A stretch of 64,000 nucleotides of DNA. It comes from Cyanidioschyzon merolae (taxonomy: Eukaryota). The notes beneath the pieces were generated by a model. It had not been told where the DNA came from, searched no databases, and saw nothing but the letters and a program-made list of their open reading frames with translations. The translations under genes and the position numbers were made by a program. Numbering within the stretch: position 1 is the stretch's first letter; the number at the start of each line of letters is the position of its first letter. Positions 2,639-64,000 of the stretch are shown here, one piece after another. Location of the stretch: NCBI GenBank assembly GCA_000091205.1, contig AP006489.2; one strand, written 5' to 3'.

Positions 2639-2896
2639 CTACACTTTGGCATCTGCACGCGATGATGAGGTTTGCGATTTTACCTGCTCAAGCTGCGCCC
2701 GCAAGCGCTCCAGTTCCGTCTCCACTCGCAGAGCGCGCTGGTCCACGTTGTGAATCTCCTCCTCCATACCACTAAAAGTCTCGCGGACGAGCGCGTTTGC
2801 CTTCAAAATATCATAGTGCAGGCGCAGAAACCCAAGTCCACCAGTAACCGTTGCACCCAAACAGAAAGCTGCGAGCCTGGAACGAAAGCTTGCCAT
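2639..2896 (-). CDS. small hypothetical protein (one TM helix then a coiled coil), about 85 aa
   Basis: Sub-ORF of the 2639..3151(-) track ORF, starting at MASFRSRLAAFCLGATVTGGLGFL (hydrophobic helix) followed by a heptad-like EEIHNVDQRALRVETELERLRAQLEQ. No family recognised. Lies in an otherwise ORF-poor region. Confidence 0.2.
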   Translation of the reverse strand: MASFRSRLAAFCLGATVTGGLGFLRLHYDILKANALVRETFSGMEEEIHNVDQRALRVETELERLRAQLEQVKSQTSSSRADAKV

Positions 2897-5439
2897 GGTA
2901 GTGTCAGTAGACAACTGCGTTGCCAGTGCTGCCGCGTTGCTGGCGACACGCCCGCCATTGCGTTGCGCGCTATGCCCACATGGCGTTAAGATCGGTGTGC
3001 TCTCGTCTTTCCACTCAAGTCTGTGACACTCCTGCTGCGCTTTAGAGCAGGGGATCGAAATCATGAAGCAATGTACAGTATAGAGCGTAGACGAATTGCG
3101 TGTAGGGTATATTTTTTTAATGAACAGTTCAAGAAAGACCGCATTCCTCATTCGGTTGAGTCATAACCCAGTACTCAGATGAATGACGAGCACAGAAAGA
3201 GGATATGCGCTCCGCGCCAAAAATCGATACGCTCAAAGACTGGGTGCGGTCAATGGCAGAAAACGAGTCGTCGATCACCTTGCAGAATGCAAACGTGTCG
3301 ATAGTAGCCGCGACGGTAGTCTCTGTTTCTCAAGTGCGTGTTCGTGTGCTCTGAAAGACTGGGATACAGTCTCAAAAAAGGAGTCCTAGTTCACGCACGA
3401 ACAGCTTTGACCGAAATCGCAACTACAACAAAGTTCCTCGAGAGTTGCCATCGATATGAAGCACAGCAACGTCGATTTCTTTTTCCAGACGATGAGAGTT
3501 TCTTCAGATGAAACGGTTGGAATGTATTTGGGTATTCGCGGAGAAGGAGCCATTTTAATATACGATGGAGCTCGAAGAGAAGGCTAGTACAACGGCACCA
3601 ACCACTTTGTCGGATCATAGCAGACTTTTCCCTTGACGTCTAATAATACCCTTCTATGGGACAACGTGGTATTTCACCATTCCTCTTCCGTTTGAGCATT
3701 TGCAGATTATATCGGGCAAGAGCTGCTTTTCATTCTTCCGTAAACTCCGCGGTTCAACCCCAACGAATGAAAGTTTCATATCGTGAAACGAAAGGATCGC
3801 TCCGCTGGGCGCATTGCTGGAGCGCTCAGCAAACTATGCCACACACAGAGACATATTTTTGTCTTTCTTCCACAAGTCTTTCACCATCCAAGCAGGTCCT
3901 CACCTTAAGACATAAACAAGTGCATTCATTCTCGAGAAATAAAAAAACCAAGGCATGAGCTCGTGTGCAGTCTTCAGAAGATCGAGACGAAGAGCAGGCA
4001 ACGGAGTTCTTCGATGATAGACAAGCACGGAGAGGCGACAGAGCACCAAATGGCATAGAGGGCGCGACTTCAAGGAATACTCGCTTTGGTGAGTCTAAGC
4101 AGTGGCAATAACCCCTTGAGTTCGAGAACCGAGAATTTAATGCAGCTATTTATATCAGGAAATGTGCGGTGCCTAGGACGAGACCCGCGGAGCTGATACG
4201 AGACAAGTTTGTGGAGCAGTCTCTCGAGGTCGAATCGTAAAAGGAGAAACTGAAGCCGATCGCAGGATCGGTCGAAAAAGGCTGGGAGTCGTCTGTACTT
4301 AGGTATTAACTTACCCTACGTAGTTGCGCGACCTGTTTGTTTCACTGGCATGTATGCTCTAGCGATAGCCCGTACGTTCCGCAGCAATATTACTGGGAGT
4401 GAAAAAACAGCAGGCAGTCATCGAACGTTCGGGAGCGTATGAATGGCAGGGTACGGTTAAGCTCAAGGTTCGGCGCTTGCACAACTCCATAACGGCGAGG
4501 GTCGTGCCAGTGATCCGACAGGGTACACCAGCTGGCAGTATGTGATTTTGTCATGCGCCCCGATCCTGCCAGGCGAAATGCAAGGGTCAGCCGTCAAGGT
4601 ACATTTAGACGCAGCATGCGCGATGCCTCTACCAAGATCACCGGATCCGTCGAACGAAGCAGACACCATAAGTTAGACAACGACGGCAGCATGGCAATAT
4701 ACTGAACTGTCATCAGTGCCCGCCGATGACGCCGGATAAAAGCAGAATTCAAATCTGTTCCTCATTCCAGCGTCCGTGCGGCATGCATAACAAGAATCGG
4801 GAATAAACGTATATTATTCGTACTCGGGTACACGACTACACCTACTTTGTGTACGATAAATACAACTATCGAAACTCCTAATGACTAGGTTGATGCATGC
4901 CTTACCCACAAAAGCGCAAGATGCTACGATGGCTACGCGTGTGCTGGAGTCATCGCTGAGTTTTGTGCCAGGCCCCAGCATCCCCTTGTATGCTAGGGTA
5001 GTACGGCGATGGGCAGTAGTTTCGGCACCAGCGACAGAGCCGAGCGCAGGAGATCACTCTACGTGAGTTTCCGATCTAGGACACCTGATTTCCGATGCAG
5101 TGCGTCGGTGAGAACACGCATGTGCTAATGCGACGTCGGACACGTGTCCTTCATCGATCCGTGTAGCGTCTCGCGCGGTGCACGCATCGCGGTCAGTGAG
5201 TGCACCTGGCAGAGCTGGCAGTAGTCAACTGGCACGACGCGCACGCCGCCGCCGTTGAAGGGAAACGCGATCTTGATCAGTTGCGTGTCGTTCAGCTGTA
5301 AAAGTCAGATTTTCGTGAGCTTCATATCCAAGTATAGTTTTGATTTCAATTGTGTTTCAAACCTCAAACAAGTGTATTCAAGCGTTTTTTCGCAGTATAT
5401 AACAGAAGCGTTCAAAGAACGTTCTTTTTCAAAAAAAGT

Positions 5440-7750
5440 CTAAAAAAGGAAAGTTATGAAAAAGCAAGTCGACGATCCTGGAGGCCCAGGGTCGCCGGCT
5501 GCCAGAGAAAAAAAACAAAAAACAGTGCCGAGTCCGGAAAAAAAGGAAGATAAGAAGGACCGAAGAGGGGAGGCCCTACGTCGAAGGCGGCAAGAAAGAC
5601 ACCTGTACGACGAAATGGTAGTGAAAGCCGGTCTTCTTGGACATATCAAGGATTCGTACAGGGAAAAGTTGCGAGGCGCCATCAAAAAACGTGCCTAGTC
5701 GTACTCCAAGCGTATTGCCAGGGCGTCGTCAGGACTGATGCATTTGGCGAGGGAGATGTATCGCGATGTGACGCACATGGAAACAGTCGAGATTCCAGAG
5801 GGAGTTTTCGGCAACCTTTATTCGACACCTGATGGTTGGCGCAGGGAACACGCGGAGGGAAAATGTGCTAGTGCATGCCCTCCACGAAAAACACCCCTTT
5901 TACAGCTTCGAGGGTACTCGCTACAAGGGTGACCGGGATATGTACACCTACGGGGCGAAGAAGTACCTCACGAACCTGAAGAACCATCTGACAATGGACC
6001 TCGAACGTTTCATGATACGCGCCGTGGTTGCACTCTACCCGCGCATCTCTCGCAATGGAAAATGGACGATTATCAATGGCATCATGAAAGATCGCAAGCG
6101 TGAAGATGAGGTCGAATTTGTCGACAAGAAGGCGTCAAAAGTGAGCACGAATGAAGCTTCTGCGATCCGTACGGTTATACAAGAGCATCGTGCGGTACTG
6201 GGGCTACCGAATCCAACAGACAAGGTATCAGAGTTGAGCAAAGATCAGGAAAGATACGATCGCCTCATTCTGTGCTATTTCGTGTTTCTGGACCGAGAGC
6301 TCGAAGGCAAGGCAGCGGTGATGCTGCGTGAAGAGACAAATGAAGAGTGGGAGAGACGGAAGGATTTCCTAATGGGGAAGCGCTTCAACGTAGTCCCATT
6401 GTCCAATATCAAGTCACATTTTGGGACTATCGACTCCGGAATCCTTCATGGCATCATGAAGGAGATCTGTTCGGAGTTCAACGTTAGCAGGGAGGACTTC
6501 GCCGGCGAGAACCGGGAGACGTACTGGAAGAATATCTTCAATTTTAAACGTCTGAGAGTGAGCAAGCAAAACTTGTTCACTTTGATGATTGAAACCGATG
6601 GAGTAGCCTTGTGTATACACTATCGGCGGTTGAAGAGAGCCCGGCCAGTCCCTCCCTCGGCTGCGCCCGTCACGAAGGATGAAGACAAGGAGAAGGCGGG
6701 TCCTGCGACGCAGGAGGTAGAGGATAACGACCTTGTCGTTGGCGCAGCGAAGCATGAGGAAAACAAAGAGGAGGATCCTGCGACGCAAGAGGTAGAGAAT
6801 AACGACTTTGTCGTTGGCGCGGACCCCGGAAACACAAATATCATAACCATCGCAGTACCCCAGCGTGCGGAATACGGTACGCACAGTAAATTACGTCAGA
6901 ACGACATGCGTCGTTTGAGGTTCTCGAGAGCGAGATACTACCGAGAATCCGGTATAATGAATGCAAGGAAGAAAATCGAGATAGAGAATGCTGGATTGAA
7001 GAAGCACCTGGAAGCTATGAGCAAGGTGACGAGCCGCGCAGCGGACTTTGAAGCTTTTCTGAAATGCATGGATGTTCATGTTGCTCCTTGGGAGGCGCTG
7101 TGGGAAGAGTATACAAAGCCCCGGTGGGCTCGTTTGCGTATGAATCCGTATTGTGGTAAGCAGCGGGCGTTCGCGAATTTTTTCAATGAGTTGAGTGCCT
7201 TGAAGGAGCATGAAAGTCAGAGGCTCGTAGTAGCATACGGAGCGGGGCGCTGGAAGACCCACAAAGGGACTCCGCCAGCTCCAACGACAAGAACGTACAA
7301 GGAGAATGCACGGCGTTTTGTTACGATACGGATAGATGAGTTCCGAACGTCCGATACACACCGTGAGCTGGAGTGTACACTTCAAAGGGTCGAGATGGAA
7401 AAGCGCCAGGGGAGTCCTGAAGACATAGCAAAGTACGGACCGCTGCCGGAGGTGCAAATGGAGAGGAGAACAAAAGTGCGAGGGCTACTCGCATTCGTAA
7501 GTACAACCAACGACGGCAAGAAACGTATGCGGTTTGTGAACCAAGACTTTAACGCCGCCGTCAATATACGGAGATGCGCGGCGATTGAGAAAAGACCTCC
7601 ACAGCAGACAAGAGAGAACTTTGTTGGACAACCTCTCAAAGTCCAACTATATGAGAAAAAGTTGAAACCAGTGGTGGGTGGCCTGCCCAGCAAGGCTGGG
7701 ATGCGTCTGCCCGTCAGCTGGAGACTGCTTGTCCGGGGCGCGTTCGCCGC
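5440..7750 (+). mobile_element. Fanzor/TnpB-like (OMEGA-type RuvC nuclease) transposon-derived element, copy 1. Boundaries approximate.
   Basis: Nucleotide and protein homology to a second copy at 62180..63986 starts near 5440. The encoded protein has a K/R-rich N-terminus, '[17 protein letters not shown]' (GxDxG, RuvC-I-like, Asp near 6822), 'FFNEL' (candidate RuvC-II Glu near 7188), 'RRFVTIRIDEFRTSDTH..EC' (TnpB-like '..P.YTS..C..C' zinc-finger lead-in, Cys partly replaced) and 'RMRFVNQDFNAAVNIRRCAA' (canonical TnpB/Fanzor RuvC-III, Asp near 7545). The right end is not defined. Confidence 0.6.
5456..7680 (+). pseudogene. Fanzor/TnpB-like nuclease coding region, interrupted (copy 1)
   Basis: Track ORFs 5456..5698 and 5738..5932 are in the same frame, separated by a single TAG at 5696-5698. 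A +1/-1 frameshift near 5825 then joins to the 5832..9404 ORF. Copy 2 reads continuously across that second point, so these are lesions or sequencing errors. The RuvC-like motifs downstream are intact, and Met5832 could still give an N-terminally truncated product. Confidence 0.55.
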
Positions 7751-7829
7751 CACTACTGTGCACCACTGGCGGCAGCGTTTTTCTTTAGACAGGCTTTTGT
7801 TTTCGCTGCCGTCGTCCTCCAGAAGCAAA

Positions 7830-9404
7830 ATGAACGCTGAACCAGGTGTTCCCAACTCGGACCACAACCGCACACGACAAATGCCTGGTGGGAACACAAC
7901 CGAGCAGGACGCACTCGCCGATCGCTTGCTTCGCTTTCTCGATGCGTCACCGTCTCCGTACCACGCAGTCGAGACCGCAAAACTGCTTCTAGAAACAGCT
8001 GGCTATACTGAGCTTCGGGAGGACTGTTCCTGGTTGGGGCGAGTTCATCCCGGAGGACGCTATTATACGACACGCAACGAGTCAACAATCGTTGCCTTTC
8101 GAGTGGGGCGAGCGTTTCACGTCGACGCGGTGAACGGCGGTGAGCTCCGACTCGTTGGCGCGCACACCGACTCGCCGTGCTTTCGAGTCAAACCACGAAG
8201 TCGCGTGAGCGACGCAAATTATGAAAAAGTTGCAGTCGAGTGCTACGGGGGCGGCCTCTGGTACACCTGGTTCGATCGCGACCTCAAGTGTGCTGGGCGG
8301 GTCATCTGGCGCTGTGCGTCCCCAACGGACCCGGCACAGGGCACCAGCCGATCGACCAGTTGGCAGTGCACACTCGTTCATGTACGGGAACCCATTTTGA
8401 GAATTCCATCATTGGCAATCCACTTAGATCGAGAAGTGAATCAGGGCTTCGCCCCGAACCGACAAACGCATTTGGTGCCGGTTGCCGCCACCGCATTGAA
8501 CAGAACAAAGTTGCCACAGTGTCAAGAGCGCCATGCCACTGCACTTACGGGAGCAGTTATTCACACTCTTCAACAGGACATCATGCCCGTTAAAGAAGAT
8601 CCGATGAGCATCACGCGTGATGCAGGCGGTATCGTTATTCATGACTTTGACCTCTGTTTGGCAGACGCACAGCCAGCGAGCATTGGTGGCGTTCAGCGGG
8701 AGTTCATCTTCGCTTCGCGTCTAGACAACCTGTTTTCCTGTTTCGCGGCACTCGAAGCGCTCCTCTCCCTGGATTCCGAGGCTGGGGTGGAAAGCGGTGC
8801 CGAGTCGGCGGTCTGCATGGTTGCGCTTTTCGACCATGAGGAGTGCGGTAGCGGTAGTGCGCAAGGCGCTGCGTCTCCGCTTGTCAGCGACCTGATTCGA
8901 CGTGTTCTAGCGTGTTTATGGACGGGGAAAACGGATGCAGGCGCTTTCGAGGACGCTGTTCAATACACGATCCGCCGCTCATTCTTGATCAGTCTCGATA
9001 TGGCGCATGCTGTCCATCCAAACTACGCGGAAAAGCATGAGAGTGGCCATCAGCCGCTCTTAGGCCATGGCCCTGTTCTGAAAGTCAACGCAAACCAGCG
9101 GTATGCAACTGACGGGTGGAGCGCTCATCTCCTCCGCGCTGTTGCCGAATGCTGTGATTCACCTATACCGCTGCAGGAGTACGTTGTGCGGAACGATATG
9201 CCTTGCGGCAGCACCATTGGACCCATTGTAGCTGCTGGTACCGGCGTACGAACTGTTGATGTAGGTGCACCAAGTCTTTCAATGCACTCGATTCGGGAAA
9301 TGGCGCATGTACGAGATCTATGGTACACCGTCAAGCTTTTGCAAGCGTTCATGCGATGTTTCGGTGAGGTCCGGGCGTCGCATAATACAGCGTGCGTGAC
9401 GTAG
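7830..9404 (+). CDS. aspartyl aminopeptidase (peptidase family M18)
   Basis: 'LLRFLDASPSPYHAVETAKLLLETAGYTEL', 'LRLVGAHTDSPCFRVKP', 'GGGLWYTWFDRDL', 'LFDHEECGSGSAQGAAS', 'SLDMAHAVHPNY' and 'MPCGSTIGPI' are the hallmark M18 (DNPEP/Ape4) blocks. The start is chosen at MNAEPG (7830); MPGGNT (about 7881) is an alternative. The track ORF 5832..9404 fuses this gene in-frame to the upstream Fanzor-like element. Confidence 0.8.
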   Translation: MNAEPGVPNSDHNRTRQMPGGNTTEQDALADRLLRFLDASPSPYHAVETAKLLLETAGYTELREDCSWLGRVHPGGRYYTTRNESTIVAFRVGRAFHVDAVNGGELRLVGAHTDSPCFRVKPRSRVSDANYEKVAVECYGGGLWYTWFDRDLKCAGRVIWRCASPTDPAQGTSRSTSWQCTLVHVREPILRIPSLAIHLDREVNQGFAPNRQTHLVPVAATALNRTKLPQCQERHATALTGAVIHTLQQDIMPVKEDPMSITRDAGGIVIHDFDLCLADAQPASIGGVQREFIFASRLDNLFSCFAALEALLSLDSEAGVESGAESAVCMVALFDHEECGSGSAQGAASPLVSDLIRRVLACLWTGKTDAGAFEDAVQYTIRRSFLISLDMAHAVHPNYAEKHESGHQPLLGHGPVLKVNANQRYATDGWSAHLLRAVAECCDSPIPLQEYVVRNDMPCGSTIGPIVAAGTGVRTVDVGAPSLSMHSIREMAHVRDLWYTVKLLQAFMRCFGEVRASHNTACVT

Positions 9405-16613: not shown

Positions 16614-17499
16614 TGAGGGTCTACGGATGCATACCTAGTTTTCGTATTCTTGATTGTCTTTTATCGAATGGCTTCTTCGACTTGACATCGCAGGATTTCG
16701 TGAGAGATCGCCAGAATCGACATCACTTGCGAGGCCCTGAACGTAGCGTTCGTCAAATAATTGAGAACATGATCCAGTGTATTGGTAGAGGCGTCCGCTC
16801 TACTGCTTTCTTTGTGTGCAACATGCTCAAATCATGCATGCTTCAAGTTTTCCATGTTTTTGTTACGTAGCAGCTGTAAGGTACAGCAATTCTCGCAGCT
16901 GCATTTGCGAGGAATATGATTGACATCTTAACTTGGCGACTGTTTCTAACGCGCATACCGAAAGATCTCAAATTTTGGTAACTCCAATCATCGGGTCGGT
17001 TCGAAAGGAAAATCCTCCACTGGCTGAGACAATTGACGAAACGAGTTTCGGCATCTGTTTGGTGCGTCTCACACTGTATACTTCCACCGTCTGCCGTCTT
17101 TTCTCGCAGCATACGAAAGGGTGCTGGGCTCGAGCTTGAAATCGACACAGCGATCGATCCTAGCGGAGCGGGTGTCAACGCTACCAACAAGGGCGCGTCA
17201 TCGAATCGACTTTGTTCGATTTTCCCCAAGCCTGGAATTTCCTTTCGGTACTCGACTCGTACTGGGCAGCAATTCGTTCCAGCAATGCTCTATCAAGTGG
17301 TTTAGCGTGCACGTGCGCGTCCAGCGGACAGTCTACTCGTCCAGGGTATCACGCAGCACTAGCCCGCGATCGTAAGGCCCCGACCGGGTGCCGCAAACCA
17401 TGGCATCAGGGCAAACCTTCCGGATCCATCGACGACATGTACGGAGCGATGAAGCACACCTCGAAGTCGCAAAGGATCGCCCTCAGAGAATCAGGTGTG

Positions 17500-18208: not shown

Positions 18209-19612
18209 TCAAGCGACCGGATGGTGTTCGCAATCATTTGCGCCATTCGATGACTCCGCATCTCGCCGGATATAGAACAGAATATAACCGCAATCGCTAG
18301 AGCATGAACCGGTAACGCTCTGGCCACTCTCTGAGATGCCAAACACTTCCTGGAGGGAGTAGTCCTCCACAACCTCTACCTGGTCGTCGTCGTAGAGCAT
18401 CCAGATGCCGCCGCTGCTCTTAGCCAGCGTAACATAATGTCCATGGCTGGGGCCTGCACCCACGTGCACCACCACAGAGAATAGCTCGTAGAGGCCATCC
18501 ACGTCCTCGGCGTCATCACTGACGTTGCAAACGCGAAGCTCCATCGGAAACGAAATGCGATAATTCAGTTTCTTGTACAAGAGCTTCATGTTCGCCTCGA
18601 GAAATTTGAAACGCTTCAGATGCAGCGCCAGAACTTGAGGCACTCTGCGAATGAGCATGCGTTTCTCGGCCTCCTGCAGCGTTCGACAGACGTTGCAATA
18701 GAACTTGTCGCCAGAACGCAACATCTCATGGGCAGAAAAGTTTCTTAAGCAGGCAGATATAGAACTATGCTGCTCAATATCAAGACTCAAGTCCAAAAAA
18801 TGCTCTTCACGCCGCGTTATCGTCTCACAGCCCAGACATCGCGTTTCGTTGACGAGCTCGCCTTGGAAAATGCGCTCGACGAACGTTGTAAACTGCTCCT
18901 CTGAGCTCACGCCGCCTTGGCTAGGCTCAGACGCCAACAGGTGCATTCGGTGCTCCTCCTTCAAAAGTTCAGAGCACTGATTCAAAAGAAAATTCAAGAA
19001 TTCATGAGAGTCGTGGTGCATGTAGCCTGCGAAGAGGTCACTCGTTTGTCGCACTCGGGCGATGAAGTTCCGCGGTTCAACCAGACCGGTGTACGTGGCG
19101 GTCTGTGGAGCCAGTACTGTGCCGTCAAGCACGCCTGTGTTCGGAGAATGTCGAGCAAGTGCCGCCACAGACACGCTTACAACGGGACCGTTCGAGTTCT
19201 TTCCCTTGAGGCCGTGGAGCTCTGCAAAGAGATCCGCCAGTGCTGTTAGCACGTTCTCCCGATACCCGGCTTGGTTATTGCGGTAGGGATAGTTGTCGGG
19301 GATCAGGTCGCCCAGCGCCACACCAGACTTGGTTCGACGTCCGCGTTCGCGTCGACGCTGCAGCTCGGCGAAGAAAGTCAAAACTTCCCGACGAAACGGT
19401 TCGCAGAAGTAAAGCGCTTGGATGATCGAGTTCGCGTAGCAAGTGTTACCGTAGTTTACCAGGCCGCAGTACCGTTCTCTTCGAGAGCTGGGGAGTGATC
19501 GAGCGTGGTTCTCGAGACGAGAACGCATTGTAACAGCCCCGTTGGCCATGGCTCGGTCGCTACGACTCGCTACGAGCCAAGCCAGATGCACAAGCTGACT
19601 CTCTGCACACAC
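18209..19612 (-). CDS. ubiquitin carboxyl-terminal hydrolase (USP/UBP family, USP12/46-like)
   Basis: Cys box 'GLVNYGNTCYANSIIQALYFCEPFR', 'YMHHDSHEFLNFLLN', 'FQGELVNETRCLGCE', His box 'GLYELFSVVVHVGAGPSHGHYVTLAKSSGGIWMLYDDDQV'. Confidence 0.85.
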   Translation of the reverse strand: MCAESQLVHLAWLVASRSDRAMANGAVTMRSRLENHARSLPSSRRERYCGLVNYGNTCYANSIIQALYFCEPFRREVLTFFAELQRRRERGRRTKSGVALGDLIPDNYPYRNNQAGYRENVLTALADLFAELHGLKGKNSNGPVVSVSVAALARHSPNTGVLDGTVLAPQTATYTGLVEPRNFIARVRQTSDLFAGYMHHDSHEFLNFLLNQCSELLKEEHRMHLLASEPSQGGVSSEEQFTTFVERIFQGELVNETRCLGCETITRREEHFLDLSLDIEQHSSISACLRNFSAHEMLRSGDKFYCNVCRTLQEAEKRMLIRRVPQVLALHLKRFKFLEANMKLLYKKLNYRISFPMELRVCNVSDDAEDVDGLYELFSVVVHVGAGPSHGHYVTLAKSSGGIWMLYDDDQVEVVEDYSLQEVFGISESGQSVTGSCSSDCGYILFYIRRDAESSNGANDCEHHPVA

Positions 19613-19800
19613 GGAAACCTGCGAGCCTTAGAGAAAAACGCCTAGAAGCTAACCGCTTCTCGCGCGAAGCCAAGTCCAACTTGCCGTGAACAAACCTACC
19701 TTTCCCGATCTCCAAGGGTAGACGCGTCTCAGGAAGTTGCTTTCAGACCGTTCAGCGTTGGCAGAAGCATACCTGGTGTCCAAGAGCAGGCTGTAGCAGG

Positions 19801-20385
19801 ACGTACCAGATCGATCGATGAATCGCTGCGCGGGAGGCGTCTGACCTGCAAGATCAATCGAAAAGCAACTTGTTCTGGATATTTATGTATAAATAGGATT
19901 TTACTGGATGATCCTGACGTACCAGATCGATCGATGAATCGCTGCGCGGGAGGCGTCTGACCTGCAAGATCAATAGGCAAGCAACTTGTTCTGGATATTT
20001 ATGTATAAATAGGATTTTACTGGATGATCCTGACGTTACGATCGATCGATGAATCGCTGTGCGGGAGGCGTCTGACCTGCAAGATCAATAGGAAAGCAAC
20101 TTGTTCTGGATATTTATGTATAAATAGGATTTTACTGGATGATCCTGACGTTACGATCGATCGATGAATCGCTGTGCGGGAGGCGTCTGACCTGCAAGAT
20201 CAATCGAAAAGCAACTTGTTCTGGATATTTATGTATAAATAGGATTTTACTGGATGATCCTGACGTTACGATCGATCGATGAATCGCTGTGCGGGAGGCG
20301 TCTGACCTGCAAGATCAATAGGCAAGCAACTTGTTCTGGATATTTATGTATAAATAGGATTTTACTGGATGATCCTGACGTTACG
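19801..20385. repeat. minisatellite: about 5 tandem units of 114-118 bp
   Basis: Unit 'acgt(t)ac(ca)gatcgatcgatgaatcgctg(c/t)gcgggaggcgtctgacctgcaagatcaat(c/a)g(a/g)aaagcaacttgttctggatatttatgtataaataggattttactggatgatcctg'. Units begin at 19801, 19919, 20033, 20148 and 20263. It lies between the 5' ends of the divergent USP and TrpRS genes. Confidence 0.9.
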
Positions 20386-21118
20386 GAAGCATCCGAGAAC
20401 GCACGTCATTTTGCGGCTGTATATCCGGACGTGTTTCTTCAAACATCCTGCGAGGGTGCGAGCGTTGCTAGTCGTCATCGTGAAACCCACGTCAGTCCCG
20501 ATGCAGATGCTCCATCCGTTCAAGGTTTCCTCTTCAAAGTTATCCAGAGGAAAAGAGACTTTATCCAGCGAGTCCAGATCTGGATATCCACTCGATACCG
20601 CTGGACGCGCCGCCGTTCTTGTCGCGTGCAGGCAGAACGGCTCTGCGATACCCATTCATAAACTTGCTTCAAGAGCTGGATGCCGAAGCGTGCGCGTGAA
20701 CAAGGTCGCACCGTATGCAACGCTGGGGAAACTGCGACTTGAGTTCGCACCAATTGTTCCAATTGTCCTTCGCATGCGCAATTCGTTGTGCCGGACTCCT
20801 TTTTACACAAGTGCATGACGACGGGCGTTACCGTGCCTCAGCTTGTTTCCCTATCCAGCCAGTCTAGTTCAGCCGCGCTCTCCACTTGGTTCAACCTGGA
20901 AACTGCATTGCAATGGCAACGTAAAGCTTCGAAGCACTAACCAACACCCTGCATACTCAAGGCATGTATCGGCGAACGCACCGAACCTGCTTCTTAGCAA
21001 GCAACCTAGCCGCTCAAAGTCGACGGCAAGCGGTGCGCTGGCTGCACACGGGCCAGTCGGCGCTAGACTGGTGTCCGCGGACGCGCTCGTTTATCGCAAA
21101 CGAGAGTCGCGCTGACGC

Positions 21119-30434: not shown

Positions 30435-32235
30435 CGTTGCGCTCTGTGAAGGCCTGTGGATCGAGGAGCTTGCACGCGCACCGTACGGAAGGAGCGTTCT
30501 CCTTCGACCTTGGCGGAACGGGTACGGCGCTCTAGATCACAGAATTGAAAGTAGAGCGTTTGCCTGCATGTGCTGCAACGTTGCCGAAACGCTCTAGTGC
30601 TGCACGATGAGCTTCCAAAGTGACGTCATTTTTCACGACGCAGAATGCCAGGTTACGCATCTTGGTTCCGGGAATGCGGCGGCTTCTCTCAAGTCAGATG
30701 AAACTTCCCACAGGGTACTGCTCGCTTTGTTCCTGACCTGCAATTTTTTACTGAACATGTTTGAGAGATACAACTTTGGAATTCCATGGACAGGAGTACA
30801 GACTTGCGGATACATATGTGATTTTAGGGCTCTGATTTGTCGCTTCGTATGGGATCGTTCGAAGCGTTGCTGCGGGGTTTCGTTCCGCCGCTGTCATCGA
30901 GTTGATTCGCGACGCCCCCGAACACGGGTTCGTAAGCTACCGGGTAGCATCATTCAGCTCATACGTACAGGCCCTCACTCTTCTTCTTCTCATTTCGTTT
31001 AGAATCACCAAGAGACGAATTCTACAAGTTTTCGATCTATCAGTTTTCCCCTTTGCAGTGAGCCGGTGTCCGAGCAAACGTGGCGCTAATGCATCCGATG
31101 GATACCATGAGCAGACATGAGGGAGAAGAAGCGAAGCTGGCCGGCGATGTGGAGTTCATGAAGCGAATTCTATGTCTTTCGTACGGAGCGTCGGCGGCAT
31201 TCACGAACCATTGGAGGAACGAACAGGAAACGTGTTGCGGGACGCAATGCTGTCCGTAATGAAACAAGTACCAAGAAGAAATCCTGGGCTGGCGAGGAAC
31301 TCGAGCGATTCCGATCCGTCCACGCTCGAATCGTAACAAGCGATGATGCATACTCCAGCGGAATCGATCGCTGCGATGACTAAAGTCCGAGTCCAGAATC
31401 CTTGTTCATGTGATCACAAATGGCAGTTTGCCGCTGATAGCATATCCAGCGCGGGGTATCGTGTTGCGGTGACATCTCGGTTAGTAGCTGGCCCCAAAGA
31501 AATCATGATTTTGCCTTTGACCGGAATCGATGATTTGACGTGGAAACTTCACTGAATGCTTGGCAAGAGCTAGTGAATGAGTCGCCAAGCAACGACGTTG
31601 CGTTTGTCCGTCATCGATCCAAGAGCGCGCATCGCAGCTCCAAAGGTTGCATTGGAATAAAATTATGGAATAATTGAAGCATGCATGATTTGATCATGAG
31701 ACAAGTTAGGAGCTGGGAAGCGTGGAAGCCTTTGCATACAATTTGGATCATGAGATTGATGGTCTACGAACCGTGGTGCGATGTCATCGCAAGCCATCTA
31801 CATCGCGTTGCCGTGTCGAATACCGCCTGAAAAGCGGTGAAGGAGCCATCCCGAACAGACAACCGAGAACTCTAAAACGGCATGTAAATCCACAAGTTCC
31901 TACGGATGCATATCGAGTATCGAGGTTTTCTATCTCAAATAGAACAGTAAGCAGTCGAAAAGAATAACAAATCGAGCAGTTCCGTGGACCAGGTGAATCT
32001 CCGACACGAGCGTACATAGCGCACATGCGCGGAAACCATATACGGTCTCTTTCTACCCATTTATTGATATTCCTTCACTGAAGCAATCGTAGAGACAGAG
32101 CAAGCGCGCCACGGCATGGTCTACTGCTCCAGTGCGCGCCCTGTAAACGAATACTTTTCTCTAAAGCAGTTTCGCACTGACGAGGCAGGTAGCGTCCATC
32201 GAGCGACAGCGCTGTAAACGCCTGCGAACTCGAAC

Positions 32236-35200
32236 ATGCCGCCACGTAAGCGCAGGACAACTGAGCTTGAACGTTTGGGCGTGCACCTCGAGGAAAGCGT
32301 GTCGGACGCTGTACCCGTGCGACGTCAGGTGCGATCACGGACGACGGAACGTGTTCGCGGAGGCCGGCACGATGATGAAACAACGGAGCAGGTGCATTTG
32401 ACGGGGTCAGACACATCGGATACACAGAAGCAGCCAAAGCCTATGCCAGTTCAGCAGAAGCAGCCCAGAGCTGCCGTATTGCAGACGCCGAAAGAAACGC
32501 TTTCCGAGCAGCTTGATCGTGCGCTATCTCCGTTGCTCCCGTTTCTCTCTTGGCCTCTGCATGATTCGAAAGATTCTGAACTTGAAGATGCGCACTGGCA
32601 AGCCCAGCTGGAAGCCGCTGCGACCCAAACTGAGCATTTCGTGGAAGAGCTGGGAAAAGATGCGTCCCATGAATCAGGAATTGACGCAGCACTCGCCCAG
32701 GCGCTCTGGTGTCTCTATCTCGCGAGCGCTAGCTCTTTTGAAGCAGAACCCAAGCGCAGCGTCGTGACTTGGCCAGATGTCGCACGAACGCGGTGGACCC
32801 AGCTCCTGCGGCGCCTTCTGCATCGGAACTTGCTTAGCAAGGCGGTTCTCGTGCGTTGGCTCCCGCCTGAGAGCTGGCAACAAACCGGTTTGGTGAGCGA
32901 GCTCGACGAGCCGGCACAGTGGACGCGGTCAGTGCGGCGACTTCATACCCGAATACATTACACTCAACCAGTGTACCAGGTTTTCCGGGAACAGCCGCTA
33001 GGTTTTGCAAGTCTGCTCAGTGCTTTCACAATCTGGATGGAAAACGCAGATGCCTTTTCTACTGACACCAAACTAGACGCATCGAGCAACATGAAACCCG
33101 ATCACGCCCTAGATGCGATCGTTAACGAGCATCTATCGACTTTTCACATAGAAACAAACCGAGCATACGACTTGGGCATCCAAATGCTGATCGCTATCCA
33201 TGAATGGAAACTGCGGCAGCATCGAAAGGCTGCACTGCTCAACTCGGGGCCTGCGGCTGGCCCTGGAGCTGAACTGCCGCAGCCACGAACGCCAGAGGAG
33301 CAGCAGCAGCAGCAGCAACGGCACTCGCTGCCCGATTCCGGTGTCTGTATCCGTTGCCGGACGCTAGTCGAGATCGAACAGGCCTTGATCAACTGGCTAC
33401 GAGGTGTCCCGTCTCGTAACGCTGCGCAGCTCTTGGGGTTCCGGCTCCAGCAGCTGCAGTCCGCTGCGGCCTGTGTGACGTACCAAAAAGCGGTGCCCGA
33501 AGAGCGCCTACCGGAGGCAGTGTTTCTGGTGGCCGCACGTCTCATTCACGAGAGAATCGTCTCACTGGAACAGCTGTGGCCTCATGTGGTGAACGCGGAT
33601 TATGAGGACGCCGCCACCGTCGGAACTGACGCAACGCTAGCAACGAGTGGGCAGACATCGACAACCGCGTCGCCACCGCCAAAACGAAACACTGCTGCAG
33701 ATGCGCGTTCAGCGAGAGCAGCGCCCATAGACCCAGCGAGCGCTGTCCAAAGCAAGCCCTGGGATGAGCTGGGAGCCTTCATCACTGCCCAAACGAAAGC
33801 ACTTGCGCGCGTGCGCCTGGTTGAACGCGACTGCAGCAGAGAGCAGGCGTCAGCATCGGAGCGGGGTTCGCAGGCATCAGCGGCTACGGCCTCGCGCGAG
33901 ACAGACAACGCTACCAAAGCGGTCGACGCCGTCTACGATGCCCTGAGCATGCGAGGCATTCTTGCACCAATAGCTGGCGAACTTGCTCTCTTGGCTGCAC
34001 TGATCGACTATGATGAGTTGCATCTGGTCGAAACCTGGATCCAGCGTGTGTGGCTGGCAGACCTGACCGAGAACGCTACCCTTTGGCACTGCCGGCGGGA
34101 GCTTGTCTACGCAGCTGCTCCGCTTCGATATGCCCTGTTTGCCTACATCATGCGTCATATTAGTCAAGTTACGGGAAACGGATCCCGCGTCGTGATGGCG
34201 ACCGGCGCTGACGCTGCCGCGGCTGAGCCCAGCGACGAGAACAACCATGCCAACGACACCAGAGCACTGCTTCTTCGTGTTTGGCGCCTGCTCGGTGGTC
34301 ATCTCGTTCAGCGTCCGGAGCTTTTCAAGGCGATGTGGTCTATTGTGAGCAGTACGAGAGCAGTGAAGCGTGCTGATCCTGCTGTTGATGCGCATGAAGC
34401 ACAGGTAGATTCCACAGTATCCGCCTTCTGGGCGGGTGACGGAATTCTTCCTTGCTCGCCTCTACTTGCTGTGCTGTTCTCCCAGGGGAGCGCGGCGGTT
34501 CCAGGTTGGCTCTTCGGAGATGCTAACGCTGCACTTTCCTCGCTGCCCTATGCCTACCGTTATGCTTTGTACCTGAATGCCTGTGCGACCTGCGTGCGTC
34601 TTTCGAGCTCAGCTGAGCCACGTGCTTCCGTACTGATCCCGTTCTGGCATGCCCTGTACCGAAGCATGAGTCGACGTCTGCTACGTCGACTCGCCGGCGA
34701 TACGATTGGTTACATTGCCAAGTCGCTCGAGCCGATGCTCTACAGTGAACCGTGGGCTGTAGCGCGCATCATCCTGGACCAAGTTCAAAGCTACGATAAC
34801 CTCGTGGAGCCTGTTGTGGAGATGCTTATGTGGCTGTTGCGAGCTCGGACGGACCTCAGTTCCGCCTCAGACGGGGAGCGAGTGCATGCGCTCGCTTTCG
34901 CGCTCGATGTCTTCTTCGCGCTGTTCGTCGAGGAATTAGCGGGATCTGCACAGAACGGAACCCAAAGACCTCGCATTCGCTCTCAAGAAAGCGGTGGCAG
35001 TCTGGCGAGCTGGTTCCTCAACACCATTGAACTCGTTGTACAGCTCAGTCGGCGCATGGTAGAGCACCTTGCTGCACTTTTGCCGTCAAATGAGAACGAG
35101 ATCCATGGCTACGAAAGCGTCGATCCGGCGTTCACTCTGCAGCAAGTGCTGCAGGACTGCTGGCGTGCGCTCTTACAGCTGGCTGAAAGGCGCATCATCC

Positions 35201-37254: not shown

Positions 37255-37461
37255 CGACGCAGCACACCGGCAACGAAGCCGAGCGTCACCAGCAAGCTCC
37301 TTCGAGCGAAACCTCAACGAGTCATCGAATGCAGGCATTCTTCCAACGCGCCCAAGCCCGTTAGGCTGCTCGAGACGTGCTGAAACCGAGGATTTATTGC
37401 CGACGTGAGAGAGAAAGTTCACCAGGACACGTGTCGATGCACGCATGCACGCATGCATGCC

Positions 37462-39345
37462 ACCAGGAAGCATCTGGAAGCGCATTGTTCAGCTGCATGT
37501 CAGTGATGCACATGCATAAACGGACGTATGCATACGTACGAACAGGAAGCATCTGGAAGCGCATTGTTCAGCTGCGTGTCAGTGATGCACGTGCATAAAC
37601 GGGCGTATGCATACGTACGAACAGGAAGCATCTGGAAGCGCATTGTTCAGCTGCGTGTCAGTGATGCACGTGCATAAACGGGCGTATGCATACGTACGAA
37701 CAGGAAGCATCTGGAAGCGCATTGTTCAGCTGCATGTCAGTGATGCACATGCATAAACGGACGTATGCATACGTACGAACAGGAAGCATCTGGAAGCGCA
37801 TTGTTCAGCTGCGTGTCAGTGATGCACATGCATAAACGGACGTATGCATACGTACGAACAGGAAGCATCTGGAAGCGCATTGTTCAGCTGCGTGTCAGTG
37901 ATGCACATGCATAAACGGACGTATGCATACGTACGAACAGGAAGCATCTGGAAGCGCATTGTTCAGCTGCGTGTCAGTGATGCACGTGCATAAACGGGCG
38001 TATGCATACGTACGAACAGGAAGCATCTGGAAGCGCATTGTTCAGCTGCGTGTCAGTGATGCACGTGCATAAACGGGCGTATGCATACGTACGAACAGGA
38101 AGCATCTGGAAGCGCATTGTTCAGCTGCGTGTCAGTGATGCACGTGCATAAACGGGCGTATGCATACGTACGAACAGGAAGCATCTGGAAGCGCATTGTT
38201 CAGCTGCGTGTCAGTGATGCACGTGCATAAACGGGCGTATGCATACGTACGAACAGGAAGCATCTGGAAGCGCATTGTTCAGCTGCATGTCAGTGATGCA
38301 CATGCATAAACGGACGTATGCATACGTACGAACAGGAAGCATCTGGAAGCGCATTGTTCAGCTGCGTGTCAGTGATGCACATGCATAAACGGACGTATGC
38401 ATACGTACGAACAGGAAGCATCTGGAAGCGCATTGTTCAGCTGCGTGTCAGTGATGCACATGCATAAACGGACGTATGCATACGTACGAACAGGAAGCAT
38501 CTGGAAGCGCATTGTTCAGCTGCGTGTCAGTGATGCACATGCATAAACGGGCGTATGCATACGTACGAACAGGAAGCATCTGGAAGCGCATTGTTCAGCT
38601 GCGTGTCAGTGATGCACATGCATAAACGGGCGTATGCATACGTACGAACAGGAAGCATCTGGAAGCGCATTGTTCAGCTGCGTGTCAGTGATGCACGTGC
38701 ATAAACGGGCGTATGCATACGTACGAACAGGAAGCATCTGGAAGCGCATTGTTCAGCTGCGTGTCAGTGATGCACGTGCATAAACGGGCGTATGCATACG
38801 TACGAACAGGAAGCATCTGGAAGCGCATTGTTCAGCTGCGTGTCAGTGATGCACGTGCATAAACGGGCGTATGCATACGTACGAACAGGAAGCATCTGGA
38901 AGCGCATTGTTCAGCTGCATGTCAGTGATGCACATGCATAAACGGACGTATGCATACGTACGAACAGGAAGCATCTGGAAGCGCATTGTTCAGCTGCGTG
39001 TCAGTGATGCACATGCATAAACGGACGTATGCATACGTACGAACAGGAAGCATCTGGAAGCGCATTGTTCAGCTGCGTGTCAGTGATGCACATGCATAAA
39101 CGGGCGTATGCATACGTACGAACAGGAAGCATCTGGAAGCGCATTGTTCAGCTGCATGTCAGTGATGCACATGCATAAACGGACGTATGCATACGTACGA
39201 ACAGGAAGCATCTGGAAGCGCATTGTTCAGCTGCGTGTCAGTGATGCACATGCATAAACGGACGTATGCATACGTACGACCAGGAAGCATCTGGAAGCGC
39301 ATTGTTCAGCTGCGTGTCAGTGATGCACATGCATAAACGGACGTC
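37462..39345. repeat. 79-bp tandem satellite, about 24 units
   Basis: Unit 'gaacaggaagcatctggaagcgcattgttcagctgc(a/g)tgtcagtgatgcac(a/g)tgcataaacgg(a/g)cgtatgcatacgtac'. The period of 79 was measured between 37541 and 37620. Three SNP positions define unit types that recur in blocks, giving a higher-order structure. It occupies the gap between the convergent THOC2 and COPB1 3' ends. Confidence 0.95.
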
Positions 39346-49329: not shown

Positions 49330-49405
49330 CTGATCGATTTTTTTCATTGACAAAACGTTTACTTAGGCCAGCGCTCTCGAATTATACGCTTTTTTGTTTC
49401 TTTTT
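49330..49405. repeat. member 2 of the 85-bp direct repeat pair
   Basis: See 48225..48300. Confidence 0.7.
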
Positions 49406-60244: not shown

Positions 60245-62179
60245 AGAGCAGTATGATCTAGTTTTGCGCTCGTGGGTATACCCTGGACATCGTGTAAGCG
60301 TTGCTCATCAGAAGAAGCGCGGGATATGCTGTTGGATTGTGCGGGATACCTGATTGTCGACATCGAGCGCGCTCTAGAAAGGTACGCTATGACCGGTCGT
60401 GTAACGCTCCTTCTCGCAATTGGCCAGGGGAGCTCCGGCGTATATCGCGTCGCTCATCCCAAATATATGTGACTGTTCACGATGATAGCCCATCATGGGG
60501 AACTTTTTATCCACCGCTCGGCCGTTCACTTGGAATCGAGCGTAAGATGCTGCTGTGCGTGATCTATTTGTGAGAAAGTTCCCGTGCATGTCCTAGTAAC
60601 TCTACAGCTGCTGGTGGTGCTTCAGGAACATGTTGGGTTAGGATTTGGCCGAACGAACGTTCGGAGAGGACGAAAATCGATAGCTTTATGGAAGAACTTT
60701 AAAGGATGAGAAGCGCATTTGAAACGATCGCGCGTTTCCGCCTTCTTGGTACAGCGATATGCTCACCTTGAGAAGAGATATCCACGGGTAGCTACGGCCA
60801 CATGCAAACAAGGGCGGCAACTCGACCAGTTTGCGCACGAGATCCTGGGCGCATGCCTTCACCGCATAAACTCATGCTTCACTTTCTAACACGCTCCTCT
60901 GACTTTTTTCCATGGTCTAAATCCACGATCCTAACCAGATTTCCTCTGGAGGCGCTCACGCCACAACGGAAAACGAAAGAGACCTCAGTGATTCCATTCT
61001 ATGGCTGTTCCATGAAATGACGCACTTGCCCACGATCGGAGACTCTGTCGAGGGAAACGCGAATTATACAAGGAGGGCACTCAAGGCCACGGTTTTCCAC
61101 GGCTGGCGTACACAATCCGGGACCCAAAAAGTGGAATGGCTGAGGTGGCTATGGGCAGTAGCCGCAAGCTCCCGAGCACCTGTAGATTCTTTTAGTCCTT
61201 CGACTCAACTTTGTTTCACCATTGATATATTGTATAGCAGGAGATCGAAATCTTTACGCAATATACCGTTTAGACAGCAGACGGATCGCATTTAGGATAT
61301 ATATGTTCCTTTACGAACAATGCAAGGAGGACTGCATTCCTTTTTCAGCTCAGTCATACCACAGTACTCCGATGGCCCAGGGACTCCGAAAGAAAGAATT
61401 ATGTGCGCTGCGCTCTAAAAAACTGCTACTGTCCGAGCGTGCTCGTAGACAATGGTAAAAAAATTGCCCGATAATCACCCCACGAAAAGCAAAAGTGGCG
61501 GTAGATGCACTAATAAGCGTCTTTGTTTCTCAACTGCCAGTTCATGTGATCCTGAAACACTGGGATACAGTCGCAATAAAAAGTCGAAGATCGCGCTCGG
61601 CAATTTTGCATAGACATCGCAACCACAGCTTTCCTGGTATTCAGCGATCGGTTTGAAGTAGAGGGACGTCGGTTTGGTTTTCAGTCGATTGAACTTGCTT
61701 CGAACGAAACAATCAGAGCGCCCTTGGGTATTCGAGGAGACAGGCACCCATTGTATGTACGATCGAACTCGAAGAGAAGAACAACATCATCCGTTCGAGC
61801 TGCAGTGGATTCATTCGGCAGCCTCAGTTTCGCTCATAGAGACGGCTCATAAAACAACGCCCAGTACTCGCTCGAATCATTGAAGACTTTTCCCTGACGT
61901 TTGGCGATGTGCTTCTATTGGACATCATGGCGCCCCATCATTCCCCTTGCGTTCGAGCTTTTTGCAGATTGTATTGAGGTAGGGCTGCTTTTCATTCTTC
62001 CATACGCTCCATGGTTTATCCCCATCGAAGGAGCGTTTTCTGTGGCAAAAAGTAATGATTGCTTCGCTGGGTGATTCCTTGAACCTTTGATCACGATGAC
62101 ACCGGAACACATCTCGTTTTTCTTCCACAAAAGCTTCACCCTTGGAAACGTCTTCATATAAGGGCTTGAAGGGAAGTTT

Positions 62180-63986
62180 TCATTTTCAAAAAGTAAAAAA
62201 TCCAAGGGAGAGCTGTGTACATGGAACTGGAGGATCCTGGAGGACCGGTGTCGCCGGTTGCACGAAAAACCCGCAAAGCAGAGCCAAGCAAACAGGAACA
62301 GGCGAAGACAAAGAAGGAAAGGCCGGAGGCCCAACGCCAGATGCTGCAAGAAAGCCGACTGTACGACGAGATGGTGGTGAAAGCCTGTCTTCCTAAGCAT
62401 ATCAAGGATCCCTAGAGGGAAAAGTTGCGAGAGGGTATCAGCAAAACGTGTCGACTCGTACTCCAAGAGTACCGTCAAGGCGTCGTCAGGACTGATGCAT
62501 TTGGCGAGGGAGATGTACGAAGACGTGGCGCACATGGAAAAGGTCGAGGTTCCGGAAGAGGTTTTCGACAAGACGTTTATTCGTCACCTGATGCTTGGTA
62601 CAGAGGAAACGCGGAGGGAAACTGAGCTACTGCATGCCCTCCACGAAAACTTCGTGGAATTCCGCTTCGAGGGTACCCGATGCAGGGGTGACCGGGATAT
62701 TTACACATATGGGGCGATGAAGTACATCACGAACCTGAAGAACCATTTGACAGTGAACCTCGAACGTTACATGATACGCGCCTTGTTTGCACTCTACCCG
62801 GGCATCTGTCCCAAAGGAATATCAGCGATTATCAATGGCATCACGCACGATCGCAAGCTTGAAGATGACATCGAATTTGTCGACAAGAAGGCGTCAAACC
62901 AGAGCACGAATAAGGTGTCCGTCATCCGTGCGGATTTACAAGAGCACCGTGCAGTCATGGAGCTGCCGAATCCAACAGACAAGATATCAGAGTTGAGAAA
63001 AGATAAGGGAAGATACTATCGCCTCGTCCTGCTGTATTTCGTGGTTTTGGACCGAGAACTCGAACGCAAGGCACAGGTGAAGCTGAGTGGGGGAAAATGA
63101 AGAGTGGGAGAGACGGAAGGCTTTCCATATGGGGAAGCGCTTCTACGTCGTTCTAATGTGCACCATCAAGTCACATTTTGTGACTATCGACTCCGCAGTC
63201 ATTCATGGCATCATGAAGGAGATCAGTCCGGAGTTCGATGTTAGCAGGGAGGAATTCTCCGGTGAAAACCGGGAGACGTTCTGGAAGAACATCTTCGATT
63301 TCAAACGTCTGAGGGTGAGCAAACAAAAGGTACTCACTGGGATGATCGAAACCGATGGAGTAGTCATGTGTGTACACTATCGGCGGTTGAAGAAAGATCG
63401 TCCAATCCCCGCCTCGGCGAACCATGAAGATGAGAAGGAGGCGGATCCTGCGAAGCAGGAAGCGGAGGATAACGACTTTGTTGTTGACGTGACGAAGCAT
63501 GAAGATGAGATGGAAGCGGGTCGTGCGACGCAGGAGGTGGAGGATAACGACTCTGTCGTTGGCGCAACGAAGCATGAAGAAAACAAAGAGGAGGATCCTA
63601 CGACACAGAAAGTGCAGGATAACGACTTTGTCGTTGGCACGGCGAAGGATGAAGATGAGAAGGAGGCGGGTCCTGCGACGCAGAGAGTGCATGCGAACGA
63701 CTTTGTCGTTGGCGCGGACCCCGGAAACACGAATATCATCACCATCCCTGCTCCCAAGCGTGCGGAATATGGTACTGATGGCAACTTATGTCAGAAAGAC
63801 ATGCGACTTTCGAGGTTCTCGAGAGCGAGATACTCTCGAGAATCCAGTATAATGAAAGCAAGGAAGAAAATCGAGACGTGGAATGCTAGACTGAAGGAGT
63901 ACCTGGAAGTTTTGAGCGAGGTGACGAGCCGAGGAGCGGACTTTAAAGCTTTTCGGAAATTTATGAAAGTTCGCGTTGCTCATTGA
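62180..63986 (+). mobile_element. Fanzor/TnpB-like element, copy 2 (runs to the window edge, 3' part missing)
   Basis: Homologous to 5440..7750 at both nucleotide and protein level. Compare 62215..62415 with 5456..5698 ('LYDEMVVKA..HIKD'), 62495..63100 with 5738../5832.. ('MHLAREMY..', 'ELLHALHENF', 'YTYGAMKY(I/L)TNLKNHLT') and 63087..63986 ('[18 protein letters not shown]', 'SRFSRARY'). Confidence 0.6.
62215..63986 (+). pseudogene. Fanzor/TnpB-like nuclease coding region, interrupted (copy 2)
   Basis: Frame change and stop between 62415 and 62495 (copy 1 is in-frame across the equivalent point apart from one TAG). Stop and frameshift at about 63100, where copy 1 is continuous. The ORF ends with a stop at 63984-63986, where copy 1 continues. 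Confidence 0.5.
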
Positions 63987-64000
63987 GATGCACTGTGTGA

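Follow-up and report, generated by a model that had tools for sequence, protein, structure and literature searches.

Does one uninterrupted reading frame mean one protein? The question arises in a 64,000-nucleotide (nt) stretch of Cyanidioschyzon merolae DNA (contig AP006489.2, assembly GCA_000091205.1), the whole of which is hereafter called the window. Exactly one open reading frame (ORF) in the ORF listing of the window spans positions 5832..9404 on the plus strand, and its 1190 codons join a Fanzor-like RuvC nuclease to a complete M18 aspartyl aminopeptidase. An earlier inspection of the letters alone (the sequence-only reading) had noted this ORF, doubted that it encodes a fusion protein, and suggested that a mobile element had inserted into the 5' flank of the aminopeptidase gene and might produce a guide RNA at the junction. 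We conclude that the ORF is very probably an accidental read-through, created where an old copy of CMe-1A, a transposon family lacking terminal inverted repeats (TIRs), sits co-oriented in the aminopeptidase 5' flank and has decayed there.

The downstream half of the ORF is a gene in its own right. Pfam finds a full-length Peptidase_M18 domain at ORF residues 702-1173 (E=3.8e-136; positions 1-431 of the 432 of PF02127) and, apart from it, nothing at E<=0.1 in the 1190 amino acids (aa). This and the ORF listing bear out the structure described earlier, and the linker peptide quoted in the sequence-only reading is the true translation of ~7659-7829.

7830..9404, plus strand: M18 aspartyl aminopeptidase, a separate host gene of 524 aa (identity to the annotated protein, and Pfam).

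The start codon is the ATG at 7830, not 7831, with a further in-frame ATG at 7881. The product of 7830-9404 is identical at 524/524 residues to XP_005535853.1/BAM79567.1, the aspartyl aminopeptidase of Cyanidioschyzon merolae strain 10D, which assigns the window to 10D or a near-identical strain. It shares 45-69% identity with aspartyl aminopeptidases of plants, fungi and red algae, with orthology to DNPEP-type enzymes. Orthologues in Cyanidiococcus yangmingshanensis (69% identity) and Cyanidium caldarium (54%) have no upstream Fanzor, and in the three cyanidiophyte lineages compared with C. merolae the orthologue stands alone, with a length of 474-548 aa. Across haplotypes the aminopeptidase is fully conserved, whereas the element upstream of it decays.

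The upstream part of the ORF is a Fanzor1, by profile, fold and invariant D/E/D residues. A search with its N-terminal 666 aa yields 69 homologues, each labeled DUF8286 by Pfam, and the DUF8286 family profile matches the Fanzor1 of Parasitella parasitica (PpFz1; PDB 9cf0) at E=5.5e-17. The parts of the protein lie as follows.

5832..7733, plus strand: main Fanzor1 (DUF8286) coding body, to the native last codon (homologues, profile, fold).
6816-6839, plus strand: RuvC-I 'GADPGNTN', aligning with the DPGRRD motif of PpFz1.
7332-7352, plus strand: rearranged RuvC-II Glu, 'IDEFRTS', with an invariant E, aligning with 'LIDEFRTSS' of PpFz1.
7539-7568, plus strand: RuvC-III 'NQDFNAAVNI', in which D is kept and R is replaced by Q in the window copy.
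7626-7733, plus strand: native C-terminal tail 'GQPLKVQLYEKKLKPVVGG...WRLLV', conserved in P0007 and copy D1.

Three residues are invariant in a family alignment of 14 sequences: an Asp (DPG), a Glu (DEFRT) and a second Asp (RDxNAA). At the canonical RuvC-II site the window copy reads 'AYGAGRW' (7233-7253), the Glu being replaced by the Gly/Pro type; Fanzors have a relocated RuvC-II Glu ~45 residues downstream, beside a [TS][TS] motif (PMC10530073). In RuvC-III the family keeps the D without exception and the R nearly so, and the orthologous haplotypes L008-L012 retain NRD. The fold agrees. We modeled P0001, an open, near-full-length paralogue of 752 aa, with AlphaFold2 (predicted local distance difference test, pLDDT, 72; predicted template modeling score, pTM, 0.67). 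The top seven PDB matches to this model are all Fanzor1 structures (SpuFz, PpFz, GtFz; Foldseek E 3e-17 to 1e-13, probability 1.00), and the next match after them is Cas12f at E=0.16.

The C4 zinc ribbon (CxxC...CxxC) between RuvC-II and RuvC-III was not found, the alignment of the whole DUF8286 family containing no CxxC pairs. The corresponding region reads 'TSxxHHExG...RGLLWCxST' in the family, 'TSYTHHELGC...RGLLALVSTT' in the C. merolae copies and CPKC...C..C in PpFz1. Ahead of RuvC-I, the Fanzor ORF carries an acidic tandem repeat of 75 nt (25 aa) at 6668-6822, present at 63413-63717 in the second copy of the element in the window. The number of 25-aa repeats differs among paralogues, with 2 in the window copy and ~4 in P0001, and the region is predicted to be disordered (pLDDT below 50 at P0001 residues 376-471).

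Where does the element end and the host begin? We defined the right end from 10 independent copies, taking the extra ones from metagenome contigs, the second copy in the window being cut. They are listed here with their loci and with the gene that follows, the gap being counted from the right end of the element to the ATG.

Copy A: window; then the aminopeptidase, gap 21 nt, co-oriented.
Copy B, sister of A: L006; then Tim10, gap 6 nt, co-oriented.
Copy C: L001; then a DEAD_2 helicase, gap ~426 nt, co-oriented.
Copies D1, D2 and Ds: L013; a solo right end, then two tandem copies.
Copy E: L015 (equal to copy 2 of the window); then a topoisomerase III-like gene, gap ~103 nt, co-oriented, with a Toprim domain from residue 4.
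Copy F: L021; faces a convergent gene, no gap value.
Copy G: L023; then a 500-aa ORF, gap ~106 nt, co-oriented.
Copy H: L024; then a gene of the inositol monophosphatase family (Inositol_P), gap ~88 nt, co-oriented.

In the window, the alignment delimits the following segments.

7737..7808, plus strand: 3' untranslated end of the element, 72 nt (alignment of 10 copies).
7746-7752 and 7767-7773, plus strand: hairpin GCCGCCA/TGGCGGC, within the 3' untranslated end.
7776-7794, plus strand: motif CGTTTTTC...AGACAGGC, within the 3' untranslated end.
7795-7808, plus strand: GT-rich tail, the terminal part of the 3' untranslated end.
7809..7829, plus strand: 21 nt of host 5' flank, separating the element from the aminopeptidase ATG (right-end alignment).

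All ten copies align strongly through the hairpin (7746-7773) and the 'GTT...GAAAGG' motif ending at 7794, and similarity fades in the GT-rich tail. Copy B is 97-98% identical to copy A as far as 7786, ~62% identical over 7787-7808, and unrelated past 7808; a match to the nhmmer profile stops at 7809. Our best estimate for the right end is accordingly 7808 (range 7794-7815). This lies inside the interval 7500-7900 to which the sequence-only reading had assigned it, but ~160 nt downstream of 7650, where its linker began. The aminopeptidase gene therefore retains hardly any promoter interval: the boundary is not far upstream of 7650, and 21 nt are left before the ATG. When all sequences of the comparison set were scanned with nhmmer for additional solo right ends, nothing came up beyond the known copies and two partial remnants.

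The element once ended its own protein ahead of this boundary. The aligned copies locate its stop codon.

7734..7736, plus strand: native stop position of the element, CGG here (aligned columns across copies).

This column reads TAG in D1, D2, Ds, E and F (the D1 ORF ends '...RWRRFV*' at position 4436 of L013), CGG in A and its sister B, CAG in C, GAG in H and TGG in G. With the native TAG changed to CGG at 7734-7736, the frame reads through into the aminopeptidase. The linker is made up of native C-terminal tail (7650-7733), untranslated end (7737-7808) and seven host codons (7809-7829). It was said to have no recognisable domain, and Pfam indeed finds nothing else there, but most of it is element, namely the C-terminal tail and the 3' untranslated end.

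A stop-free linker was also said to be expected by chance. This is roughly true, as shuffles of 7650-7829 are stop-free in 12% of trials, but what has to be explained is a lost stop plus seven host codons, not a 60-codon run. Since the element natively codes across 7650-7733, the part left to account for is 32 codons (7734-7829); these are open in 39% of shuffles, which multiplied by the 1/3 chance of being in frame gives ~0.13.

Other lesions mark the copy as decayed, in the window and at the same locus elsewhere.

5456..5698, plus strand: Fanzor1 N-terminal fragment, basic and resembling a nuclear localization signal, in another frame than the main ORF (stop at 5696-5698).
7605..7607, plus strand: CAG here, TAG at the same locus in L009 and L010 and in copy E (aligned copies).
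7703..7743, plus strand: interval within which haplotype L003 has lost 37 nt between GCGT direct repeats (alignment).

Residues 1-99 of P0001 align to 5525-5821 and residues 95-752 to 5805-7628 in the next frame. This split over two frames implies a premature stop and a frameshift near 5805-5821, and the first ~120 residues of the window Fanzor lie in another frame, behind the stop at 5696. The window copy is a pseudogene, because it has the stop at 5696-5698 and the frameshift near 5805-5821 and has lost its native stop. Nor is the fused frame maintained among samples of the locus. The TAG in L009 and L010 and the deletion in L003, which shifts the Fanzor frame into a stop ahead of the aminopeptidase ATG, break the Fanzor frame at the same locus while the aminopeptidase stays intact. 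Together with the stand-alone orthologues, these breaks uphold the earlier doubt about a fusion protein.

Relatives that lack the element show what the site would have looked like before. In Cyanidiococcus (L004) and a second relative (L005), the gene order is Tim10, a leucine-rich repeat (LRR) gene, a WD40 gene, a small gene, the aminopeptidase, Romo1, CENP-S, a transporter and UCH. The small gene, which is divergent and lies at 2639-3151 in the window, is 0.75-1 kb from the aminopeptidase ATG in both, and no Fanzor homology was found between the two genes in either. The same gap measures ~4.7 kb in the window, where it comprises an older remnant (3005-4300) and the present element. Judged by gene order, the insertion site is empty in Cyanidiococcus and in L005, as an insertion into the aminopeptidase 5' flank would predict. 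In a nucleotide-level empty-site alignment of the Cyanidiococcus and L005 upstream regions, scores equaled chance, the sequences being too diverged.

We propose the following reading. A Fanzor1-carrying copy, probably of CMe-1A, sits co-oriented in the aminopeptidase 5' flank, its right end at ~7808 lying 21 nt before the ATG. The copy has decayed, with the stop at 5696, the frameshift near 5810 and the change of RD to QD in RuvC-III, and its stop codon has gone from TAG to CGG at 7734-7736. From there the frame crosses the 72-nt untranslated end and seven host codons, by chance stop-free and in frame, into the aminopeptidase. The aminopeptidase itself would be expressed separately, starting at the ATG at 7830. 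As the host DNA ahead of this ATG amounts to only 21 nt, its promoter would now lie inside or upstream of the element.

Several points weigh against this account. The position of the terminus carries an uncertainty of ~10-15 nt, since divergence is faster over the last 20 nt than elsewhere. That no fusion product is made we infer from sequence alone, and the identification as CMe-1A follows the published description of the family rather than a direct comparison with the Repbase consensus. The open frame is kept in three haplotypes (window, L008 and L012). Sister copy B, which has an additional frameshift, is also in frame with the gene downstream of it, Tim10, a mild coincidence of ~1/9.

The alternative that survives best is compatible with accidental read-through and concerns what the right end may do today. 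A co-oriented host ATG lies 6-106 nt past the right end in 5/7 evaluable copies. The C. merolae genome holds ~4,775 genes, almost intron-free, in 16.5 Mb (PMC8504449), and because this amounts to ~3.5 kb per gene (PMC8504449), such placement is far from random: five of seven co-oriented within 110 nt would be very unlikely for random intergenic insertion, with a rough estimate below 1e-3. One possible, though doubtful, explanation is promoter capture or exaptation, in which an outward promoter or transcription start site (TSS) in the element 3' end drives the aminopeptidase, Tim10 and other genes; it is possibly the promoter that makes the guide RNA. Besides the positions of the right ends, this would suit an aminopeptidase that stays fully conserved across haplotypes while the element beside it decays. 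However, the sample is seven evaluable copies, and an insertion preference for open promoter chromatin, combined with survival bias in a compact genome, gives the same picture. Moreover, C. merolae transposable elements are reported, in work cited in PMC13353863, to carry trimethylated histone H3 lysine 27 (H3K27me3), which argues against promoter activity.

We consider a stronger version unlikely, namely that the right ends carry an outward promoter or TSS as an omegaRNA-making unit on which the aminopeptidase, Tim10 and topoisomerase III depend. If true, the outward promoter would account for the mere 6-106 nt that separate five of the seven right ends from a co-oriented start codon downstream, and the junction 7808/7830 would be at once a guide read-out site and a functional boundary between promoter and gene. 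The recurrent juxtaposition of right ends and start codons is the only lead here worth following. A trypanosomatid-style trans-splice acceptor at 7778-7790 (polypyrimidine tract plus AG) was also considered as a candidate feature ahead of the aminopeptidase, and was dropped, the host being a cyanidiophyte red alga.

A working omegaRNA across 7600-7830 is less likely again. Such an RNA would have its scaffold running to the right end and its guide at 7809-~7829, with Fanzor supplied in trans by an intact copy. There is precedent, as the RNA of characterised Fanzors comes from the transposon 3' end and the 3' flank serves as guide (Saito et al. 2023, PMC10432273; PMC10530073), an arrangement shared by characterised Fanzor1 and TnpB (PMC10432273, PMC10530073). 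At least one long, near-full-length ORF, that of P0001 (752 aa), is present in the population; the hairpin at 7746-7773 is conserved; and subgroup-specific terminal hairpins reach z values down to -4.3 in copy H. If an omegaRNA were made, its candidate guide, beginning at 7809, would extend over the ATG; the 21-mer 7809-7829 occurs nowhere else in the window.

Folding and conservation lend it no support. Shuffled sequences fold as well as the window copy does (z=-1.5 for 7560-7810 and z=-0.75 for 7737-7808). Across the ten old copies, RNAalifold gave 2/58 compensatory pairs over 250 nt and four invariant pairs over the 3' untranslated end, where there is virtually no consensus structure, and neither of two named hairpins showed covariation above shuffles. 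Single copies fold the GT-rich tail onto upstream GC-rich arms with z from 0 to -4.3 (lowest in H), in registers that differ from copy to copy. An Rfam scan of 4000-8200 at E<=5 returned no match. Nor does the 3' end stand out by the raised conservation that could mark an RNA gene: its conservation does not exceed that of the ORF and falls to the lowest level of the whole element in the final 80 nt. These conservation tests are weak either way, given the nearly neutral decay of old copies. Two further points count against the RNA, the short untranslated end (72 nt, against 183 nt in a Tc1/mariner-borne relative) and the missing C4 zinc ribbon of the DUF8286 family. For the guide RNA that the sequence-only reading had envisaged at this junction, computation on ten old copies thus offers no support, with a pseudogene and no covariation, consensus fold or excess conservation, but does not amount to evidence of its absence.

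Scarcely credible is a genuine Fanzor-aminopeptidase fusion protein: the 1190-codon frame is uninterrupted in the window and in L008/L012, and sister copy B is in frame with Tim10, but the frame is broken at the same locus by a TAG (L009, L010) or the 37-nt deletion (L003), the Fanzor part lacks its N-terminal 120 aa through stop and frameshift and has lost its own stop by mutation, the orthologues in three other cyanidiophyte lineages stand alone at 474-548 aa, and the curated C. merolae annotation is a 524-aa protein.

Accidental read-through from an old CMe-1A copy remains our preferred reading, and the element as a whole fits that family. CMe-1A is the only Fanzor1 family described in C. 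merolae (Bao & Jurka 2013, Mob DNA 4:12, PMC3627910). It has ~150 copies of ~3 kb, ~80% identical to their consensus, with no TIRs, with target-site duplications (TSDs) reported as undetermined, and with 5' 635 bp shared with the repeat TE-N2_CMe (PMC3627910). The window element, matched to this description and not by alignment to the Repbase consensus, covers 4513-7808, about 3.2-3.3 kb, and over the body its copies share a mean pairwise identity of 0.78-0.84. Local alignment of left ends with reverse-complemented right ends gave only short, inconsistent matches and no TIRs, and the left ends of the copies are ragged. Three further features complete the picture of the family in the window.

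4513..5238, plus strand: 0.7-kb 5' module, found upstream of only some copies (A, A orthologues and D1).
3005..4300, plus strand: older element remnant, adjoining the studied copy on its upstream side.
62179..64000, plus strand: copy E, the second element copy, truncated where the window stops (its right end was taken from L015, 99% identical).

The 5' module is homologous to L013 1310-2030 (72-74%) and to L008-L010 from 4557, with no counterpart in copies C, D2 and E, and probably corresponds to the TE-N2_CMe-like 5' part of CMe-1A. The left part of the remnant (3005-3969) is ~68% identical to the sequence ahead of copy 2 (61195-62221) and is joined to a Fanzor 3' fragment (3903-4300) without the terminal tail. 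In L013, too, two tandem copies follow a solo right end, and fresh insertions thus tend to lie immediately downstream of older right ends. A Helitron was considered for the 3' hairpin and the absence of TIRs. Helitrons have 5'-TC...CTRR-3' termini, a hairpin 10-12 nt from the end and insertion between host A and T; the window family does not conform: a CTAG-like end occurs only in D1 and E, the next base is not T (A in E, C in D1), and the left ends are undefined.

The surroundings of the element have been rearranged as well. Copies A and B flank a segment that is inverted in some samples, which fits an inversion between these oppositely oriented copies, with recombination and gene conversion. 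Gene conversion between copies would explain why the interiors of A and B are 97-98% identical and their extremities much less so. In L008 and L009 (1-1258, compared with window 3000-4556), the left end of the element adjoins an inverted LRR gene, not the small gene. The 97-98% identical sister copy B, 6 nt upstream of Tim10 (L006-L007-L011-L018-L020), belongs to the same structural polymorphism. Local synteny breaks down at the left side of the window: 1-2600 holds no ORF above 175 aa and does not resemble the two genes, WD40/THOC3-like and LRR, that stand ahead of the small gene in Cyanidiococcus and in L005.

Other repeats in the window are as follows.

37293-39488: ~25-28 tandem copies of a 79-nt unit (95-97% identity), flanked by the long ORFs 32236-37254 (plus strand) and 39568-43215 (minus strand).
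19800-20499: 5-6 tandem copies of a 115-116-nt unit (89-98% identity), just beyond the 5' end of the UCH-type gene 18209-19612 (minus strand).
16822-16864 and 31656-31698: 43-nt inverted repeat pair, 86% complementary, 14.8 kb apart, AT-rich and intergenic.
48228-48306 and 49335-49413: 79-nt direct repeat, 91% identical, 1.1 kb apart, with T-rich runs at the end.

What follows for this locus is mainly a matter of annotation. The 1190-aa ORF must not be called a fusion protein, and a Fanzor1 family whose ends were reported undetermined gains a concrete right boundary at ~7808. The main biology here is that of an old transposon copy decaying beside a housekeeping gene, in a model alga that is amenable to genetics and has very few transposons. 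The element family and the aminopeptidase are both already described for this genome, and the finding is therefore ordinary.

Among known systems, the window element may be set against the TnpB-omegaRNA homing units of IS200/IS605. It shares with them a homologous RuvC nuclease, a guide drawn from the DNA outside the right end and a subterminal hairpin. It differs in its eukaryotic host, in having no TnpA and in its ragged left ends; neither a target-adjacent motif (TAM) nor evidence of RNA structure conservation has been demonstrated for it.

Tc1/mariner-type elements with a DDE_3 transposase (L025-L030) are a second comparison. Like the window element, they carry a DUF8286 Fanzor1 gene at their right side (P0056, 38% identical), but have in addition a DDE transposase gene, 30-nt TIRs, sharp ends and a 183-nt 3' untranslated region, which the window element lacks. 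On metagenome and Logan contigs they appear as a 3.6-kb element with TIRs TATACTC... at several insertion sites and with identical protein sequence; this Tc1/mariner-like element was probably active recently in some eukaryote. A 3' motif, ACTGTA...GGCGTCG...GAAAGG, seemed by eye to be common to both families and was rejected, its scores being no better than shuffles; alignment of the 3' regions of the window element and the P0056 element found no significant similarity.

With the solved Fanzor1 structures (SpuFz1 8gkh/9ceu, PpFz1 9cf0, GtFz1 9cer) the likeness is one of fold, at Foldseek E 1e-13 to 3e-17 and a target-normalised template modeling (TM) score of 0.5-0.69. The RuvC-I Asp, the relocated RuvC-II Glu in DEFRTS and the RuvC-III Asp are common to both, as are a basic N-terminus and the position of the gene in the 3' part of a transposon. 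Unlike the solved proteins, the window family has no zinc ribbon and has an insertion of acidic 25-aa repeats before RuvC-I; its element has a 3' untranslated end of only ~72 nt, no TIR and no demonstrated omegaRNA. Closest of all is CMe-1A itself, which shares with the window element the host genome, the size, ~80% identity, the absence of TIRs and of recognisable TSDs, a separable 5' part of ~0.7 kb, and a single Fanzor1 ORF without a transposase. Nothing essential differs between the two, the window copy being a CMe-1A-like pseudogene with a lost stop codon.

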